Below are positions 4,416 through 33,826 of a stretch of DNA of 64,000 bases, one piece after another. Origin of the DNA: Candidatus Cloacimonadota bacterium. Lineage in GTDB: Bacteria > Cloacimonadota > Cloacimonadia > Cloacimonadales > TCS61. How positions within the stretch are numbered: position 1 is the first letter of the stretch; the number at the start of each line of letters is the position of its first letter. The DNA is taken from NCBI GenBank assembly GCA_030600585.1, contig JAUVLU010000002.1:2740-66739 (forward strand), read 5' to 3'. The translations under genes were made by a program, and so were the position numbers. Under the pieces are notes generated by a model. The model saw only the letters and a program-made list of their open reading frames with translations. It made no database searches and was not told where the DNA came from.

Positions 4416-5190
4416 TGTATTTTCTCAGTATCCTTTGAATTCCAGTTGCTTTTCCGGTATTTTCATCAATTCCAACCACAATTGCATTTATCTGTAGTCC
4501 ACCTTTACCCGGATTATACTGTTGAGGCATTGAAGTTATCATTTTTTTAATAACGATATCCTTATCAACACCAATACAAGAATCATGCGGGCCTGTCATT
4601 CCTACGTCGGAAATATATGCAGTTTTATTTGGAAGGATCTCTTCATCAGCAGTTTGAACGTGAGTATGAGTTCCCACCAGAGCACTTACACGTCCATCAA
4701 AATAAAAACCTAAAGCTCTTTTCTCACCTGTTGCTTCAGCATGAAAATCAATAAAGATATTATTGGTTACTTTCTTTATTTCAGGTAAGATTTTATCAAG
4801 AGCAATAAATGGTGAATCGATCGGGCTCATATAAACCTGTCCAATCAAATTGACCACAGCTAATTTTGATTTCCCTACATTTGCAATATACAAAGTTGCA
4901 CCAACTGCTTTTTCAGAATAATTAAGCGGCTTGAGGATTCGCGGTTCTCGTTTTAGATATTCAATTGAGTCTCTTCTATCCCAAATATGGTTACCGCTGG
5001 TAAAACAATCGATACCACACAAGAATAATTCAGCAGCTGTTTTTTCCGTTATTCCTTTTCCATGCGCAGTATTTTCTCCATTAGCAATACAAAAATCAAT
5101 TTCAAATTCTTTTCTTAATTCAGGAAGATACTTTTTCATCAAGTTTCTTCCGGGTGAACCGAAGATGTCACCAATAAATAAAATATTCAT
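4408..5190 (-). CDS. ymdB: YmdB-family metallophosphoesterase (2',3'-cyclic-nucleotide 2'-phosphodiesterase)
   Basis: 260 aa. Contains MNILFIGDIFGSPGR, NGENTAHGKG, IDFHAEATGEK and GTHTHVQTADEEILP. It sits directly downstream of rny, as in the Bacillus rny-ymdB operon, and overlaps both neighbours. Confidence 0.9.
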   Translation of the reverse strand: MNILFIGDIFGSPGRNLMKKYLPELRKEFEIDFCIANGENTAHGKGITEKTAAELFLCGIDCFTSGNHIWDRRDSIEYLKREPRILKPLNYSEKAVGATLYIANVGKSKLAVVNLIGQVYMSPIDSPFIALDKILPEIKKVTNNIFIDFHAEATGEKRALGFYFDGRVSALVGTHTHVQTADEEILPNKTAYISDVGMTGPHDSCIGVDKDIVIKKMITSMPQQYNPGKGGLQINAIVVGIDENTGKATGIQRILRKYNE

Positions 5191-6758: not shown

Positions 6759-6787
6759 TATTTACCTCACTTTGATCTATTATTTTA

Positions 6788-6952
6788 CCCGCGATACCGT
6801 GTACCATGTACTTCTGGAACCTTGGAACAAGGTGGACGTCTACCGTTTTTTGCTTTACATCTCCGGATCATGTCCGGTTCATGCGCCACAAAGGGCCTGA
6901 CTTCCTATTCATAATTGGTTCTGAATATCGATAATATCACGAATACCGCAGG
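6788..6952 (-). ncRNA. ssrS: Candidate 6S RNA (rod-like structured RNA immediately downstream of zapA)
   Basis: GC-richer 165-nt intergenic segment. On the minus strand, 5' CCUGCGGUAUUCGUG pairs with 3' CACGGUAUCGCGGG (14 bp, one bulge, three G-U pairs that would be A-C mismatches on the plus strand). There is an apical hairpin CCGGA-CAUGA-UCCGG and internal complementary blocks (GUGGCG/CGUCCAC, GAACC/GGUUC). The zapA-ssrS synteny is known from E. coli. Confidence 0.55.
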
Positions 6953-6955
6953 CAA

Positions 6956-7228
6956 TTATTTTTCACTAACCTCTATTTCATCTATCAGATCGTTGATCTG
7001 CTCAAACTTTTTTGATAAATTTTTATAATCATCAATTTCAGAAAGATATTTCTCCGTCATCGACAATGCATAAAGAACTAATAATTTATTTTGATCTACT
7101 GTATTAAATCTTTCGTTCAATTTTTCCAGTTGATCTTCTACATACTCGGCTGTTTTTTTCAGCTTTTCAGGTTCATCACTTCTAAAATAATAAGTTCTAC
7201 TGAGAATCTTAATTTCAATAGATTTCAT
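6956..7228 (-). CDS. zapA: Cell division protein ZapA
   Basis: 90 aa. IKILSRTYYFRSDEPEKLKKTAEYVEDQLEKL...LLVLYALSM matches the ZapA fold signature. It lies downstream of pheST, as in Firmicutes. Confidence 0.75.
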   Translation of the reverse strand: MKSIEIKILSRTYYFRSDEPEKLKKTAEYVEDQLEKLNERFNTVDQNKLLVLYALSMTEKYLSEIDDYKNLSKKFEQINDLIDEIEVSEK

Positions 7229-9978: not shown

Positions 9979-10998
9979 TTAACTAAATTGCTTGAGAAAG
10001 CGAATATCATTTTCAAAAAGCAATCTCATATCCGGAATTTTATATTTCAACATAGCAATTCGGTCCATTCCCAAACCAAATGCATATCCGGTGTATTTCT
10101 CAGAGTCGATTCCCAGTTTTTCTAATACATTTGGATGAACCATTCCAGCTCCACCTAATTCCAACCAACCGCTGCCTTTACAAAGATTGCAGCCTTCTCC
10201 GTAACACTTCACGCAAATAATATCAATTTCTGCGCTTGGCTCGGTGAATGGGAAAAAGTGAGGACGGATCCTGAATTCTATCTTATCTCCAAACATCTTC
10301 TTAACGAAAATATTCAACATATCCCTAAGATCGGTAAAGGAGACACCTTCGTCCACCAGAAGTGCTTCCACCTGATGGAACATTGGGGAATGCGATGCAT
10401 CATTTTCATTCCTATAACAACTTCCCGGAGAGATAATTTTAATGGGAAGCGAATGTTTTTCCATAGTTCTAATTTGAACTGTGGAAGTTTGAGTTCTCAG
10501 AAGAACATCGTCGTCTAAATAAAATGTGTCGGAAAGCTCTCTTGCCGGATGATCTTGCGGTGTATTAAGTGCATCAAAATTATGGAATTCATCTTCAACA
10601 TCGGGTCCTTCTGCAACTTCAAACCCCATTGACATAAAGATATCTTCGATCTCGCGCCATATTTTTGTGATTGGATGCAAACTTCCTTTTGCTCTTTTGC
10701 GTCCCGGCATTGTTAGATCTATTGATTCCGACTTTAATGTTTTATTATAATCAAGCTCTTTGATCTTTTCTTCCTGATCTGCTATCATCTGTATGATCTG
10801 ATTCTTCGCAATATTAAGAGTCTGACCAAAAGCCGGTCTTTCCTCTTTAGACAAAGAACCAATCTTCTGCATGAAATTGTTCAGAATGCTTTTTTTACCG
10901 GCATATTTAGATTTCAATTGCATCAGATCATGCATAGAGTTAGCATTATTAATTTCTGTTTTCGCAGAAATAACAACTTTATTTAATTCTTCTTTCAC
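9979..10998 (-). CDS. pheS: Phenylalanine--tRNA ligase alpha subunit
   Basis: 339 aa. Class II motifs are present (HPARELSDTFYL, FRIRPHFFPFTEPSAE, GLGMDRIAML). Confidence 0.95.
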   Translation of the reverse strand: MKEELNKVVISAKTEINNANSMHDLMQLKSKYAGKKSILNNFMQKIGSLSKEERPAFGQTLNIAKNQIIQMIADQEEKIKELDYNKTLKSESIDLTMPGRKRAKGSLHPITKIWREIEDIFMSMGFEVAEGPDVEDEFHNFDALNTPQDHPARELSDTFYLDDDVLLRTQTSTVQIRTMEKHSLPIKIISPGSCYRNENDASHSPMFHQVEALLVDEGVSFTDLRDMLNIFVKKMFGDKIEFRIRPHFFPFTEPSAEIDIICVKCYGEGCNLCKGSGWLELGGAGMVHPNVLEKLGIDSEKYTGYAFGLGMDRIAMLKYKIPDMRLLFENDIRFLKQFS

Positions 10999-11009
10999 CC
11001 TAATTGACC

Positions 11010-11366
11010 TTATTTATTATGATCTTTTGCTATCTGACAAAGTTTTGTAAAAGCTTCCATATCATTGTAAGCAAGATGAGCAAGTACTTTTCTGTCGATT
11101 TCAACCTCAGCTTTTTTTAATCCGCTTATCAATCTACTATAAGATATTTCGTTAATTCTTGCTGCTGCGTTAATACGCGTGATCCAAAGTTGTCTGAATA
11201 CACGTTTCTTGGTTTTTCTATCTCTATAAGCGTATAGCCAACCTTTTTCTACTGCCTGGCGAGCAGTTCTGTACAATTTACTGCGACCACCTACGTAACC
11301 TTTGGCGGCTTTTAAATATTTCTTTCTTCTATTTTTTGCTGCTACATTATTTGTTGAACGTGGCAT
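11010..11366 (-). CDS. rplT: 50S ribosomal protein L20
   Basis: 118 aa. [35 protein letters not shown]... is canonical L20. Confidence 0.97.
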
Positions 11367-11383
11367 TTTTATCTCCTTCCTTT

Positions 11384-11578
11384 TTAGATACCGAGCATTT
11401 TTTTCATTCTTGCTGTATCATTTGAATTTACAAGACCTGACTTTCTTAAGTTTCTTTTTCTTTTAGATGATTTTTTGGTAAGTATATGACCAGCATAAGC
11501 ATGTGATCTTTTAAGTTTTCCTTTGCCAGTAACTTTAAATCTTTTAGCTACTGCCCTGCGTGTTTTGAGTTTAGGCAT
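11384..11578 (-). CDS. rpmI: 50S ribosomal protein L35
   Basis: 64 aa. [24 protein letters not shown]... is canonical L35. Confidence 0.97.
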
Positions 11579-30221: not shown

Positions 30222-30419
30222 TTAATCTTGTTTCTTCTTAAAATAATCTAAAACTCCAAGCGACATCAATACACCGATTGCTGCGAATATTACTCCAAGA
30301 GTGGTTAAGGTAATTGCAAGAATACTTATTTTCCCAATTAATAATTGTCCTATAATGCTCAAAGTAAGTCCGATAGCTGTAAATTTTAGCGCATTCAATT
30401 TATTTATCTTTATTTTCAT
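30222..30419 (-). CDS. Small two-TM membrane protein, unknown function
   Basis: 65 aa with two clear hydrophobic helices. The coding call is weak. Confidence 0.35.
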   Translation of the reverse strand: MKIKINKLNALKFTAIGLTLSIIGQLLIGKISILAITLTTLGVIFAAIGVLMSLGVLDYFKKKQD

Positions 30420-30884
30420 ATTTAACCTTATGAAGAAAATTTATAAAGATATACTATTTAAGCAAGAAGAAATGAAAGAAGGGTGATCGTTCTCCCGAAA
30501 TAATTCTGGAAACCGCAGGAAGAAAAATTGTCATCCTGCCTGCCAAGCCATAGTAGCACGAAGGCTGGAGCGGAGACGAAGGATAATTCACCGCAAAGAC
30601 GCTAAGTACGCAAAGAAAGACAACTATTGAATAAATCTGTCTTTCTGAACCCCATCCCAACCCTTCCCCTTAAACTAATGGGAAGGGAGTTTTACTCGTT
30701 CCTCCGGTATTTAACGGATGGTCTTGAACCTAACAATGGCTAATTGCACCGCTTCGACTCGACGTTTCTCTTTCGAGTCGAAACTCAGAATTATTTTCTA
30801 ATTGACACATAATAATAATATTTACAAATTCGGTTTTGATTTAATAATTAATTTGCAACATTAGAATTTAGGGGAGAAGTTTTG

Positions 30885-31046
30885 AAATTTATACAAAAGA
30901 TTTGGGGACATAAGAATTTAAAAACCCCGATACATTTTTTCAAAACTATGGGGAAGGCAACAGAAATTTATATACATATCACAAAAAAAGGACTCAGTAA
31001 AATTAAGAATCCACTTGATAACTTGAATATTGAGGATGAATTATAA
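30885..31046 (+). pseudogene. C-terminal remnant of a tyrosine recombinase/integrase
   Basis: A 54-codon open frame, KFIQKIWGHKNLKTPIHFFKTMGKATEIYIHITKKGLSKIKNPLDNLNIEDEL*, matches the integrase C-terminus (..LLGH.s.kTTeIYtHv....l..i.sPLD.L) including the catalytic-Tyr box. That box appears partly duplicated. No upstream integrase sequence remains. Confidence 0.7.
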
Positions 31047-31123
31047 AGGTGCGCAATAACTCTGATATTGAAGTTATGACGAACCTTTTTGGTGTAACTA
31101 GAGGTTAGTTATGTGCACCTTTT
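31045..31123 (+). other. Long imperfect hairpin in the RT leader (candidate cis-RNA element or element boundary)
   Basis: aaaggtgcgcaataact (31045-31061) pairs with agttatgtgcacctttt (31107-31123), giving 16 bp with one G-U and one bulge. Mutually exclusive small hairpins (ataact/agttat, taacta/tagtta) lie inside. Confidence 0.45.
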
Positions 31124-31170
31124 ATAAGGGCGCAGCGTGCATATGTTAGCTGCTATCAGAGGTAAAATAT

Positions 31171-33084
31171 ATGGCTCAAAGTTATAATTTAGGAAGTTTT
31201 CTTAAACTCGAATATGTAGAAAAGGGATTTGAGTTACTAAAAAAACAAATTGAAGAAAATACTCATACTTTTAAAACACTCGAATTAGAGATTTACAGAA
31301 AAGAAGATTATCTAAATGGATTTGATATTATGAATTATTACAATGTTTATATAAAAAAAGATGTCTTTTACAATTATCCAAATCTTTTTTATAATAATTC
31401 GTACACAATGCCGAAAAGTAATTTAGGTGTCAGAAGTTTCAATTTCACTTCATTTAGATTAATGATTCTTTATTATTCATTAGGTTTTTATCTTCACAAT
31501 GTAATTTCATCATCTTTGATTGAATTAGAAGTAATAAAAAAAGAAAAAAATATTAATACATATTATGGTGGCAAACTTAATTACGATAACCCTTCAGCAA
31601 GTAAAATATATTATCATAATGATTACAAATCATTTTTGAAGGGTATTAATAATTCAGCAACAGAAATTATTAAAGACAACAAAAAAGCTATTGTTATCAA
31701 AATGGATATTCAAGATTATTTCAATAATATTGATCACCTTACTTTATTGAAAATTATTGAAAATTATTCTATCCCTTCTGTAAAACAAAATAAGAGTTTC
31801 AATCCAGAATCTAAAGACTCAATATTACAATTACTAAATTTTATTGTTGAGGATAAAAAGGGTTTACCTCTGTCAGCTAATAATATAATTTCAAACTATT
31901 TGAGTTATATTTATTTAATTGAATTGGACGATTATGTGAGGAAAAACATATTAACAAAATCTAATTTTAAGTATTTTCGATATGTCGATGATTTTTATAT
32001 CATTTATTCAGTTGAAAAGACAAAACTGAATGATGAAATTGGAAATATTAATTTCAAAATTTGTACCTCTGTATCAGACTTTCTTATGCACAAATTATCC
32101 TTACGTATTAACAATCTTAAATCAAAAATAAATATTATTGAAAACGAAGATCAACTTATTAAATTTAAATCTTTAAGTAAATTTTTTAGTTTTCCTCCTG
32201 ATATTGAAGTTCAAGATGAGAAATTAAGGAACAATTTTACAAAAGTTATTGAAGTTATTGAAAGATTAAAAGCAGATTTCAAAACTTTTGGTGAGGCTTC
32301 TTTAGATTCTGAAGACGACTCGTTATTAAAAGAAATGTTTCTTACATCAGTGAAAAATGATCAGATGTCAAATTACGTAAAATCTAAAGAAGCTATTAAA
32401 CAATTGGACAAAGCTTTTCTTGGCTGGAATTTCATTCTAACATTAAATAATATTAAATCATTGATGTTTTTTATCGGAAGTTCAAATAAAAGTTTTAAAA
32501 AACTCGAAAAATATCTAAAAGATAATTTTAAAGATATTGTCAAAAAAACTCAATATTTATACCTTCTTGAGCGAGTTTTGCTTAATGAAAAATATTCAAA
32601 TTCTTTAGATACAAACTTTATTGCAAATTATGTGAATTGCATTCCCTATTATGAAATACTAAAAAGAATAGTATTTCCTAAAATTGATAAAAATGAAAAT
32701 GATTTACCTTTTGACGATAACCTTCTTAATAGTTTAAATAGTTTAACCCAACAAATCAAACTGATGCATTTAGCTGAAAAAATGCAAAATTATAATGTAG
32801 CATTTAATCATCTATTGAATTCATTACATTATTATTGCTTTCATAATTTTTCTACACCAAAAAAATTAAAAAATTATGACCGTAATGATTTAGTAAAAGA
32901 TATTAAACAATTTCTAACATTAAGAGAAATTAGTTTTGTCATATCTTTTTTCGATAGAAGAAATAAAAACAGTATATCACATCCTGGAGAGAATGAGCTT
33001 ATTAACTGGATTGTTGGTAAAAAAGAATATTATGATTACAAAACAAAGTTAAAAGTAATTATAAAAAAACTAAACAGCAGCTAA
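31171..33084 (+). CDS. Reverse transcriptase with C-terminal HEPN-type Rx6H motif (AbiA-like, defence-associated RT)
   Basis: 637 aa. RT motifs: TMPKSNLGVRSF (1/2), IVIKMDIQDYFNNIDH (A, Asp codon at 31705), GLPLSANNIISNYLSYIYLIELD (B), FRYVDDFYII (C, YVDD at 31981-31992) and LSLRINNLKSKI (D/E). The C-terminus has FFDRRNKNSISHPGE, i.e. R-x6-H (32959-32982). Size and architecture equal lactococcal AbiA. The gene is visibly more AT-rich than its neighbours. Confidence 0.85.
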   Translation: MAQSYNLGSFLKLEYVEKGFELLKKQIEENTHTFKTLELEIYRKEDYLNGFDIMNYYNVYIKKDVFYNYPNLFYNNSYTMPKSNLGVRSFNFTSFRLMILYYSLGFYLHNVISSSLIELEVIKKEKNINTYYGGKLNYDNPSASKIYYHNDYKSFLKGINNSATEIIKDNKKAIVIKMDIQDYFNNIDHLTLLKIIENYSIPSVKQNKSFNPESKDSILQLLNFIVEDKKGLPLSANNIISNYLSYIYLIELDDYVRKNILTKSNFKYFRYVDDFYIIYSVEKTKLNDEIGNINFKICTSVSDFLMHKLSLRINNLKSKINIIENEDQLIKFKSLSKFFSFPPDIEVQDEKLRNNFTKVIEVIERLKADFKTFGEASLDSEDDSLLKEMFLTSVKNDQMSNYVKSKEAIKQLDKAFLGWNFILTLNNIKSLMFFIGSSNKSFKKLEKYLKDNFKDIVKKTQYLYLLERVLLNEKYSNSLDTNFIANYVNCIPYYEILKRIVFPKIDKNENDLPFDDNLLNSLNSLTQQIKLMHLAEKMQNYNVAFNHLLNSLHYYCFHNFSTPKKLKNYDRNDLVKDIKQFLTLREISFVISFFDRRNKNSISHPGENELINWIVGKKEYYDYKTKLKVIIKKLNSS

Positions 33085-33096
33085 CAAACGTGTCAG

Positions 33097-33670
33097 GTGC
33101 GTCACGAGGTGTGATATTGTCAGTTGGTTAAAATCCAACGCATTTAATTTTCCGTTCAGATGGAAGTGATGGAGATGGCTTGATTCGGTAACGAGTCGGT
33201 CAAAGCTCTCCTAATCGTTAAATAAGCCGTAGCGTAAGCGAACAGATTAGCTTCGTTAATTGTAATTTGCAGTCGGCGAGTCTCTTGGGCTTGATGAAGC
33301 CTGCTACTCAACAGGAAGAAACGGAAAGTAGCACTGTTGAGGACTGTCGGAGTTGTAACTGATGGCGTGTTTGAGAATGATAATGTCATAGACGTGAGAG
33401 AGCCTTTATATCAAAGATTGGCAATCTTAAATGTTTTTCTATAAGGGAAATCTGAAATGAAAAGCAGGTATAAAGGCAGTCGGAGATGCCCATAGTAGTG
33501 TTGATATTTGGTTCATAACTATGGGCTTATAAATCCAGCGAGATATACTTTTGTTTGATACTTATGAATGCTTAAGATGAATCTTGTCGGTAAGCCGTAT
33601 GCGGGAAAACCGCCCGTCCGGTTTGATGAGGGTTGCAGGTTCTCCATTTGGAAACCTGCTTCTACTCTAC
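33097..33670 (+). mobile_element. ORF-less group II intron ribozyme (or decayed remnant)
   Basis: Starts with GTGCG at 33097. Domain V is AAGCCGTATGCGGGAAAACCGCCCGTCCGGTTT at 33592-33624, with the AGC triad, a GAAA-type loop and a CGU.CGGUU 3' strand. A domain VI-like hairpin (GCAGGUU...AACCUGC) follows, with a candidate branch A seven nucleotides before the ...CUCUAC end. There is no room for an intron-encoded protein in domain IV. The segment is clearly GC-richer than its flanks. Confidence 0.7.
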
Positions 33671-33826
33671 CGGGGATGTGCAAATTGGCAACCCTTGACT
33701 TTGATTTGCTCATCTCTTATCAGATTAGCTTGAACTTAGAATTATGAGCAAGCTCAAATCCCAAACTCAATCCAATCTGACGTGGCACGCCGGCATTAGC
33801 AGCTATTTAAAAAATTGGAGGATAGA

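Follow-up and report, generated by a model that had tools for sequence, protein, structure and literature searches.

The region at positions 30790 to 33805 of the 64-kb window (the whole stretch of DNA analysed here, from contig JAUVLU010000002.1 of a Candidatus Cloacimonadota bacterium) is very probably a decayed integron-type platform that holds one gene cassette, with an anti-phage gene of the AbiA family as its cargo. All parts of the element lie on the plus strand, and the platform is of the integron type in which the recombinase gene and the cassettes share one direction. The pair of inverted 11-mers around the gene, the hairpin upstream of it and the recombinase stub are scars of recombination at this platform and not RNA partners of the reverse transcriptase (RT) that the gene encodes. 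An earlier description of the same DNA, made from its letters alone (the sequence-only reading), had listed these features, and all of them are present, with two small corrections of position: the open reading frame (ORF) of the recombinase stub starts at 30882, not 30885, and the first 11-mer lies 16 nt, not 17 nt, before the ATG of the RT gene. Its remark that the region may simply be a graveyard of mobile elements holds for the platform, which is decayed, but not for the islet as a whole, which is one coherent element with one secondary insertion, a group II intron.

The 11-mer TGTTAGCTGCT is located at 31144-31154, upstream of the RT start codon (31171), and its exact reverse complement AGCAGCTAACA is found at 33076-33086, over the TAA stop codon (33082-33084); these are the only two places in the 64-kb window where the 11-mer occurs. 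It had been conceded that such a pair could arise by chance, and in a wider form this view would take the region as a collection of unrelated mobile-element fragments, with a chance inverted repeat and no common mechanism. The degraded state of the platform, with its recombinase stub and an intron devoid of an ORF, agrees with such a view, and some 11-mer pair within 64 kb is not rare in itself. However, an inverted match of at least 11 nt between the 100 nt upstream and the 100 nt around the stop codon was obtained in 0 of 300 shuffles, and the RT ORF is alone among the 42 window ORFs of at least 150 aa in having a flanking inverted match longer than 9 nt, the matches of the others being pure A/T. 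The 11-bp inverted repeat flanking the RT gene is thus not due to chance. In homologues from other phyla, boxes of the same class, (G/A)TTA... and ...TAAC, stand at corresponding positions, and the breakpoint seen against a related locus falls exactly within the 11-mer; a mere assembly of fragments is therefore highly improbable.

The related locus that places the breakpoint was found by a metagenome scan with the DUF3267 protein encoded upstream of the platform, which yielded relatives of 76-91% amino-acid identity. One of these, L094, has a DUF3267 gene 84% identical to that of the window and shares four segments with it, namely the DUF3267 gene, a small minus-strand ORF, a block containing TTGACA, and the stretch corresponding to 31045-31149, from the hairpin to GTTAG, in which identity is high (about 88% over the last ~65 nt). 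Beyond GTTAG the two sequences are unrelated, the window continuing with CTGCT and the AbiA gene and L094 with GCGTAATTATTTT and another ORF. Since the identity ends at GTTAG, the crossover is placed at G31145|T31146, inside the first 11-mer, which is the R' box of the junction between the platform attachment site (attI) and the cassette (31124..31154, GGGCGCAGCGTGCATATG|TTAGCTGCT). The suggestion that the 11-mers mark recombination boundaries was thereby borne out. The comparison of related genomes, which had been proposed for defining the islet, set its left breakpoint but did not provide an empty site: exact-protein look-ups with the RT, the DUF3267 protein and the downstream 824-aa protein returned either no match or just short Logan contigs of the same sample.

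The attI region (31047-31145) includes the hairpin (31045..31123), which has a 16-bp stem with arms AAAGGTGCGCAATAAC and GTTATGTGCACCTTT and a 47-nt loop and is positioned between the recombinase stop codon and the crossover. Its folding energy as DNA is -14.8 kcal/mol, against -4.6 +/- 1.8 kcal/mol in dinucleotide shuffles (z = -5.7). Because it is kept in L094 in front of different cargo, the hairpin belongs to the platform and is not the leader of the RT gene that it had been taken for. The stems of the window and of L094, the single relative that furnishes the evidence for conservation, show several differences, among them two compensatory double changes and one change from a wobble to a Watson-Crick pair; these speak for a selected structure, which may be part of attI or a terminator of the recombinase gene.

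At the left edge of the platform, the TTGACA block (30790..30838, with the exact TTGACA at 30802-30807) is conserved when the window is aligned with both L094 and the sequence that precedes, by ~110 nt, the recombinase start of L099, a more distant relative. The recombinase gene is entirely gone from L094, ~60 of its codons survive in the window, and recombinase genes are present downstream of the same block in L099. The block would accordingly seem to be the upstream, promoter-like region of the former recombinase gene. A scan for sigma-70 promoters gave no enrichment over shuffles, and the promoter type of the host may differ. Of a Pc promoter, which in integrons drives the cassettes, this block upstream of the stub is the only candidate seen. 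The L099 segment at 10370-11568 contains two tandem tyrosine recombinase genes 3' of the block, the first with a degenerate catalytic box (SILKNSFAVHLL vs HTLRHSFATHLL).

The same boxes surround the gene in its homologues. In every full-length homologue locus, the upstream flank was compared with the region of the stop codon for the longest inverted match; several loci have one, namely TGTTAGCGGC (L003), GTTATAGGCT (L006), TTGTAGGCA (L008), GTTACAGGCA (L010), TTAGCATAC (L014) and GATGTTGTAAAGC (L019). In these six loci a GTTRRRY-type box precedes the start codon and a complementary RYYYAAC lies at or over the stop codon; furthermore, in L003, L008, L010 and L019 L'' pairs with L', and another GTT box follows at a distance of 60-175 nt downstream. 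These boxes were identified by hand, as a scan for closed hairpins is too strict for R' boxes within arrays, which are hybrids. Judged by its sequence, this layout corresponds to the R''-L''...L'-R' order of the cassette-borne attachment site of integrons (attC). A G|TT crossover splits R', and a cassette therefore begins with TTRRRY, complementary to the R'' at its own far end.

That this complementarity belongs to cassettes in general was seen in L082 (and its duplicates), the Cloacimonadota locus of the closest AbiA homologue, where the AbiA gene stands among about ten genes on the same strand. This array begins 118 nt downstream of a tyrosine recombinase gene that is degenerate and encodes 178 aa. 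The array has at least six cassettes, the AbiA gene being the sixth. Each of the six consecutive cassettes that were read opens, after (G/A)|TT, with 8-20 nt whose reverse complement is the box immediately behind its own stop codon, as in the pairs GTTATATGACATGCCACACC with GGTGTGGCACGTCATATAAC and GTTAGCTGTAAAAA with TTTTTACAGCTAAC; four of the junctions use A|TT, with an R' starting with A. The encoded proteins are unrelated (a helix-turn-helix/peptidase-DUF4411 pair, DUF2971, DUF5700 and AbiA), and the end complementarity is therefore a property of cassettes and not, as had been considered possible, an RNA feature peculiar to the RT. Together with the different first cassette of L094 and the variants of recombinase P0043 described below, the L082 array shows that relatives have same-strand cassettes whose content varies between strains. 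The AbiA attC of L082 (11915-12405) stops after R''-L'' (TAGCTAACAAGCGCGAC), and 35 nt beyond the AbiA stop codon begins an ORF of 147 aa that is rich in Cys. Either two genes have been fused into one cassette here, or DNA was inserted at the place where the window has its intron.

The cassette of the window (31146..33795) measures 2650 nt, or 2076 nt without the intron. It opens with 9 nt (TTAGCTGCT) whose reverse complement is its own R'' (AGCAGCTAA), the match being exact over 9-11 nt. The 5' half of attC, which is also the 5' exon of the intron (33076..33096), is composed of R'' AGCAGCTAAC, with the TAA stop codon, and L'' AACGTGTCAG. The remaining attC (33671..33795) contains a variable centre and L' CTGACGTGG (33777-33785) and ends with A33795, the first base of R'. 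The R' box itself occupies 33795..33805 and reads ATTAGCAGCT(A), where ATTAGCAGCT is 33795-33804. The related 9-mer TAGCAGCTA (33797-33805), for which no role had been given before, is contained in it; this third motif is the R' of the AbiA attC, with its crossover at A33795|T33796. When the intron is removed, 33076-33096 joined to 33671-33804 forms an end-to-end fold on either strand (-24.1 and -24.9 kcal/mol), with 33076-33096 pairing with 33777-33804. In this fold, R'' AGCAGCTAA pairs with R' TTAGCAGCT at 8/9 positions and L'' ACGTGTCAG with L' CTGACGTGG. The L'-R' end resembles the L082 attC ends CGTGGCGTGCTCGACCATTAGC and GCGTGCAGTTCCCATTAGC, and the ligated exons, GCTAACAAACGTGTCAG|CGGG, match 19/21 positions of the uninterrupted R''-L'' half of an attC at L082:8561, which supports both the boundaries of the intron and the identification of the attC. 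The 5' end of the DNA that follows has no R'' partner downstream of 33795; the array therefore ends there, and the DNA 3' of the R' box is the old right half of attI or the chromosome.

The cargo (31171..33084) is a full-length AbiA-family RT-HEPN gene, encoding 637 aa with an RT-like polymerase, a helical region and a predicted HEPN domain. It is matched over its full length by the PADLOC profile PDLC03741 (E 2.7e-43; residues 54-634 vs 47-591 of 595) and by a second PADLOC AbiA profile, PDLC02341 (E 8.5e-14, covering 47-599 of 604), and Pfam RVT_1 scores above its gathering value. The YVDD motif (RYVDDF) is invariant among 22 aligned homologues, as is R597-x6-H604 within RRNKNSISH (RRNxNxISH). 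The latter conforms to the Rx4-6H motif, by which the C-terminal domain is assigned to HEPN, in agreement with what the sequence-only reading had recognised; the protein has no match to a Pfam HEPN model. A solved AbiA structure was not reached either by phmmer with the RT or by a PDB search with the family profile. The homologues are mostly from Bacteroidota, and the nearest (56% identity) is found in a metagenome-assembled genome of Cloacimonadota. The G+C content is ~23% in the RT gene and cassette vs ~33% in the flanks. AbiA of Lactococcus is of the same length class and domain order as the window protein, which has YVDD and the R-x6-H HEPN motif, although the two are very distant in sequence, and a shared activity is predicted by analogy. 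To our knowledge, the Lactococcus AbiA gene does not lie in a cassette.

The intron extends from 33097 to 33670 (574 nt). Two Rfam models match on the plus strand, RF02005 at 33130-33360 (54.7 bits, gathering 49) and RF00029 at 33590-33670 (44.5 bits, gathering 40), and the previous assignment of this downstream RNA to the group II introns is upheld. As read from the sequence, the intron starts with GTGCG at 33097 and ends with CUACUCUAC / CTACTCTAC (CTAC) at 33670, with a bulged branch A at -7; these ends agree with the 5' GUGYG and 3' AY of group II introns. It begins 12 nt after the AbiA stop codon and 10 nt after R'', and the AbiA gene is therefore intact whether the intron is spliced or not. 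In the domain IV region (33360-33567) there is no plus-strand ORF of at least 40 aa, and no relative of the intron was seen in the window or in the loci retrieved, nor did two scans of viral contigs with exact patterns yield one. The triad of domain V is AGC. A CGC triad is characteristic of class IIC introns, and by its sequence the intron is accordingly placed outside that class. One account qualifies this marker, giving the CGC triad only 'for some introns' (PMC4424553). According to the same source, few bacterial introns are ORF-less, and these mostly rely on a related intron-encoded protein (IEP) acting in trans. CUGAUG at 33359-33364 is a candidate for exon-binding site 1 (EBS1), and no convincing EBS2 was seen. 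The intron segment CUGAUGGCGUGUUUG (33359-33375) is complementary, if G-U pairs and a bulge of 3 nt are allowed, to the 12 nt that end the 5' exon; this pairing layout is unlike the usual separate loops of EBS1 and EBS2.

Group II introns are known inside integron attC sites, where the IIC-attC introns (S.ma.I2 type) enter the bottom strand at R'' (TTGT/T), lie antisense to the cassettes and encode an IEP (PMC3001079, PMC7923331). The intron of the window shares the location inside attC but, unlike these, is inserted in the top strand, in sense orientation and after L'', lacks an ORF and has the AGC triad; the bottom-strand TTGT/T site (CGTTTGTTAGC) is unoccupied, and the intron lies on the coding strand of the cassette. 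Sense-oriented non-IIC introns beside attC sites have only sporadically been reported, and the nearest reported analogues are the IIB intron UHB.I2, which lies in sense orientation beside an attC, and a single IIC intron of Enterobacter cloacae that occupies the top strand (PMC7923331). Among about ten AbiA cassettes, two have an intron within attC. In the other of these, a Flavobacteriales AbiA cassette (L014, 4456-4902), the group II intron is antisense and its domain V/VI (4464-4543) abuts R'', which is the classical IIC-attC arrangement.

The position of the intron in the window invites a different reading, the cassette-genesis model of Leon and Roy. In the part of the model that is described in PMC7923331, an intron located after a cassette-free gene, here AbiA, recombines with a copy of itself residing in an attC and so joins the gene to the attC, after which splicing and reverse transcription make a new cassette. 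As the described model requires, the intron is in sense orientation and lies between the ORF and most of the attC. However, R'' and L'' are located upstream of the intron and the 5' end of the cassette is already complementary to R'', which together mean that the attC was complete before the intron arrived. Moreover, the ligated exons equal a contiguous attC 5' half that is uninterrupted in L082, the AbiA homologues in other phyla are already cassettes, and the intron, which has an AGC triad and lacks an IEP, is not of the IIC-attC type, insofar as the triad marks that class. An intermediate of cassette genesis is accordingly very unlikely, and the intron is better regarded as secondary to a cassette that had been captured complete.

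Hardly more can be said for the proposal with which the region had first been described, an RT with cis-acting RNA, in which the hairpin, the 5'/3' complementarity and the ribozyme would serve as RNA parts of a defence system, as in retrons or the defence-associated reverse transcriptases DRT2 and DRT9. The parts are indeed packed tightly and co-linearly on one strand, and some RTs of the UG/Abi class use neighbouring non-coding RNAs (ncRNAs) (PMC12489045, PMC12596737). RT-ncRNA systems such as retrons and DRT2/3/9 have a conserved structured ncRNA beside the RT, whereas Rfam searches, which covered the region, the window and 25 homologue loci, found neither a co-oriented intron nor any RNA adjoining the gene in any of 24 full-length AbiA homologue loci. 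When the proposed check for co-conservation was carried across the homologues, the flanking boxes recurred, but the hairpin was not shared, the upstream regions having only the short R' box in common. The hairpin is kept in L094 ahead of a different gene, unrelated cassettes show the same end complementarity, and the supposed partner RNA is a standard group II intron recognised by two Rfam models. Furthermore, Lactococcus AbiA is reported to polymerise DNA without template or primer (PMC11077055), and no partner cis-RNA is therefore expected. An RT with RNA partners is thus very improbable, and the features around the gene are better explained by the cassette and its platform.

The recombinase remnant (30852..31046) consists of the last ~60 codons of the gene, from FAT..LE to the stop codon. 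Its ORF (30882-31046) has a TTG start, encodes 54 aa and ends in the box II motif of tyrosine recombinases. Similarity by tblastn spans 30852-31031, with 49% identity to residues 225-274 of the recombinase P0131 (E 2.5e-9); ~225 N-terminal codons are missing, and an 11-residue insertion is present. The stub was aligned with P0043, P0040, P0131, P0072 and the L082 recombinase, the C-terminus of which, IISPLDNLKLENDEKNK (SPLDNLKLEND), matches IKNPLDNLNIEDEL (NPLDNLNIEDE) of the stub. The only NCBIfam match of the stub is to the integron integrase family TIGR02249 (positions 282-315 of 315, E 0.009), and Pfam PF00589 matches with E 1.4e-4 after removal of the insertion. The full-length relatives are 275-305 aa long, similar in size to XerA, and retain all catalytic residues. 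Their best family score is with TIGR02249 (219-243 bits), which is matched in two stretches only (1-180 and 238-315), and their best PDB match is VchIntIA (2a3v); by score, the family is closer to IntI than to XerC or XerD. The stub had been interpreted as a record of site-specific recombination, and as an IntI-like remnant beside attI it is one. Another idea is that a phage-type integrase inserted a small islet and that the 11-mers are its attL/attR cores. In its favour one could cite the tyrosine recombinase stub at one edge and a composition differing from the flanks, but it is scarcely credible given that phage-type integration produces direct repeats whereas these are inverted, that the recombinase lies outside the variable segment, that the attI platform is kept in L094 with other cargo, and that the recombinase family is nearest to IntI and XerA and not to phage integrases.

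Insertion at a fixed G|TT next to a recombinase gene was seen both for the window compared with L094 and for the variants of P0043. The identical P0043 protein, with identical upstream housekeeping genes, occurs in several samples with different genes downstream, among them an Eco57I-type methylase with a HincII-type endonuclease, and a UvrD helicase with DarT. In three samples the loci share one sequence as far as GGAAATAGTT / GTCGTTTAGGAAATAGTT, 46 nt beyond the stop codon, and differ from there on, the divergence following GTT in each case (GTT|GTGTGCC, GTT|AGGCACA and GTT|AACTGTC). This breakpoint is an attI with a canonical crossover; it lies directly 3' of the recombinase, which has the same direction as the cargo. 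Between the stop codon and GTT there is a small hairpin, downstream of P0043 and likewise in other platforms of the family. The platform (L091, 8932; L092, 5989; L093, 6519) looks like an active capture site. The R'' boxes of the first cassettes of L091-L093 are not readable, as these cassettes run past the contig ends. In L088, a near-identical ~32-nt sequence, ACAAAACATTTGACAGGAAGTTAGAAAGAAATG, occurs before a nucleotidyltransferase/HepT toxin-antitoxin pair and before the intact gene for P0040 (9240-9320 and 9960-10000), and may be a shared promoter or operator.

Several observations weigh against an integron-type platform. With ~60 codons, typing of the stub is limited to a weak match (E 0.009), and even the full-length relatives score below the TIGR02249 cut-off of 265. 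The additional domain specific to IntI is missing from the relatives, which have 19 residues at this place vs 61 in VchIntIA, and on this one defining feature strict membership of the integrons fails; as listed in PMC4889954, which refers to Messier and Roy (2001), the domain is necessary for IntI activity. Downstream of the closest intact recombinase, P0040, there is no obvious array, and the window itself contains no array of cassettes but one cassette only. Even without the intron the attC measures 153 nt, which is long, its fold is only moderately more stable than shuffles (z about -2.4), and its downstream R' starts with A where G is canonical.

It is conceivable, with the balance tilted somewhat towards the negative, that the stub belongs to an undescribed integron-like branch run by short, XerA-sized, IntI-like recombinases without the IntI-specific domain. 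Such recombinases would capture cassettes at a G|TT attI directly 3' of the recombinase gene and accept R' boxes with A|TT. In Cloacimonadota and uncultured phyla close to them, they would move defence genes (AbiA, DarT, restriction-modification). In the literature that was searched, no paper linked integrons with Cloacimonadota or related phyla, which leaves the novelty of the branch putative. Secondary to this proposal is that of a non-IIC group II intron lineage that may enter attC sites in sense orientation.

The history of the platform may be reconstructed as follows. The original order would have been the promoter block, an IntI-like tyrosine recombinase gene and, directly downstream on the same strand, attI. 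A circular cassette consisting of the AbiA gene and its attC would have entered by attI x attC recombination at G31145|T31146. This crossover would have split the R' box of the attC and left the cassette with the start TTAGCTGCT, complementary to R'' AGCAGCTAA at its far end; the 11-bp inverted repeat would be this R'/R'' complementarity, and the third motif the R' at the downstream junction of the cassette. A deletion, presumably after the capture of the cassette, would then have removed most of the recombinase gene, and finally the ORF-less non-IIC intron would have retrohomed into the top strand of attC, just 3' of L''. With a split attC and a dead recombinase, the cassette is probably immobilised; the intron is presumed to splice. 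The AbiA cassette would be transcribed from the block that formerly served the recombinase gene, and its product presumably defends the cell like other AbiA proteins.

Among known systems, the platform most resembles the 'inverted integrase' chromosomal integrons and the clusters of attC sites lacking integron integrases (CALINs) with intI pseudogenes (PMC4889954; bioRxiv 10.1101/2022.02.06.479319). In these, too, the recombinase and the cassettes are on the same strand, attI is directly downstream with a G|TT crossover, the cargo varies between strains and the recombinase decays; their promoterless ORFs end in an imperfect palindrome R''-L''...L'-R' with the stop codon inside R'', to which the putative attC of the window would correspond. 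Unlike them, the window family has XerA-sized recombinases (275-305 aa) without the IntI-specific domain, many R' boxes start with A and not G, the attC is ~150 nt long, and the platform of the window is reduced to one cassette and a recombinase stub. Integron cassettes that encode phage defence are documented (bioRxiv 10.1101/2024.07.02.601719). Like these bacteriophage-resistance integron cassettes (BRiCs), the AbiA gene is a stand-alone anti-phage gene in an integron-type cassette, with homologues inside and outside cassettes. The main text of that preprint does not name AbiA, the window cassette is large (about 2.1 kb), and its host is an uncultured Cloacimonadota-like lineage, whereas BRiCs are described from proteobacterial mobile or Vibrio integrons.

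A packed islet thus becomes the readable record of one integron-type capture, decay of the recombinase and then an intron insertion, and AbiA-type RTs are added to the defence genes carried by integron cassettes, in several lineages of Bacteroidota and in Cloacimonadota. The associated IntI-like recombinases lack the domain by which integron integrases are defined, yet the cargo at their fixed G|TT varies between strains. Should they be active, capture of the integron type would extend beyond what present detection rules cover, and many 'CALINs' in uncultured phyla may adjoin an unrecognised recombinase; standard integron finders would, if the proposed branch exists, miss such short-recombinase platforms or label them CALINs. 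The sense, ORF-less, non-IIC intron in an attC is a rare configuration and bears on the interaction between introns and attC sites.

Some further features were noted in and around the region. Between the minus-strand ORF (30222-30419) and the TTGACA block, the window has a strongly foldable segment of ~330 nt (30470-30800) that is richer in G+C (about 43%). It is missing from L094, unique in the window and without an Rfam match, and could be an insertion scar or an unclassified RNA. Two Logan contigs come from the same sample, SRR18936872: L001, which corresponds to window 31123-33711, and L089, which ends at ~30098. L001 breaks off where the hairpin ends on its 3' side and, at the other end, within the loop of attC, not at the cassette borders, and these ends were not used as evidence; these contig breaks possibly result from coverage or strain mixture. 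Elsewhere in the window, a 6S RNA gene was identified on the minus strand at 6782-6957 (Rfam RF00013, 75.3 bits).

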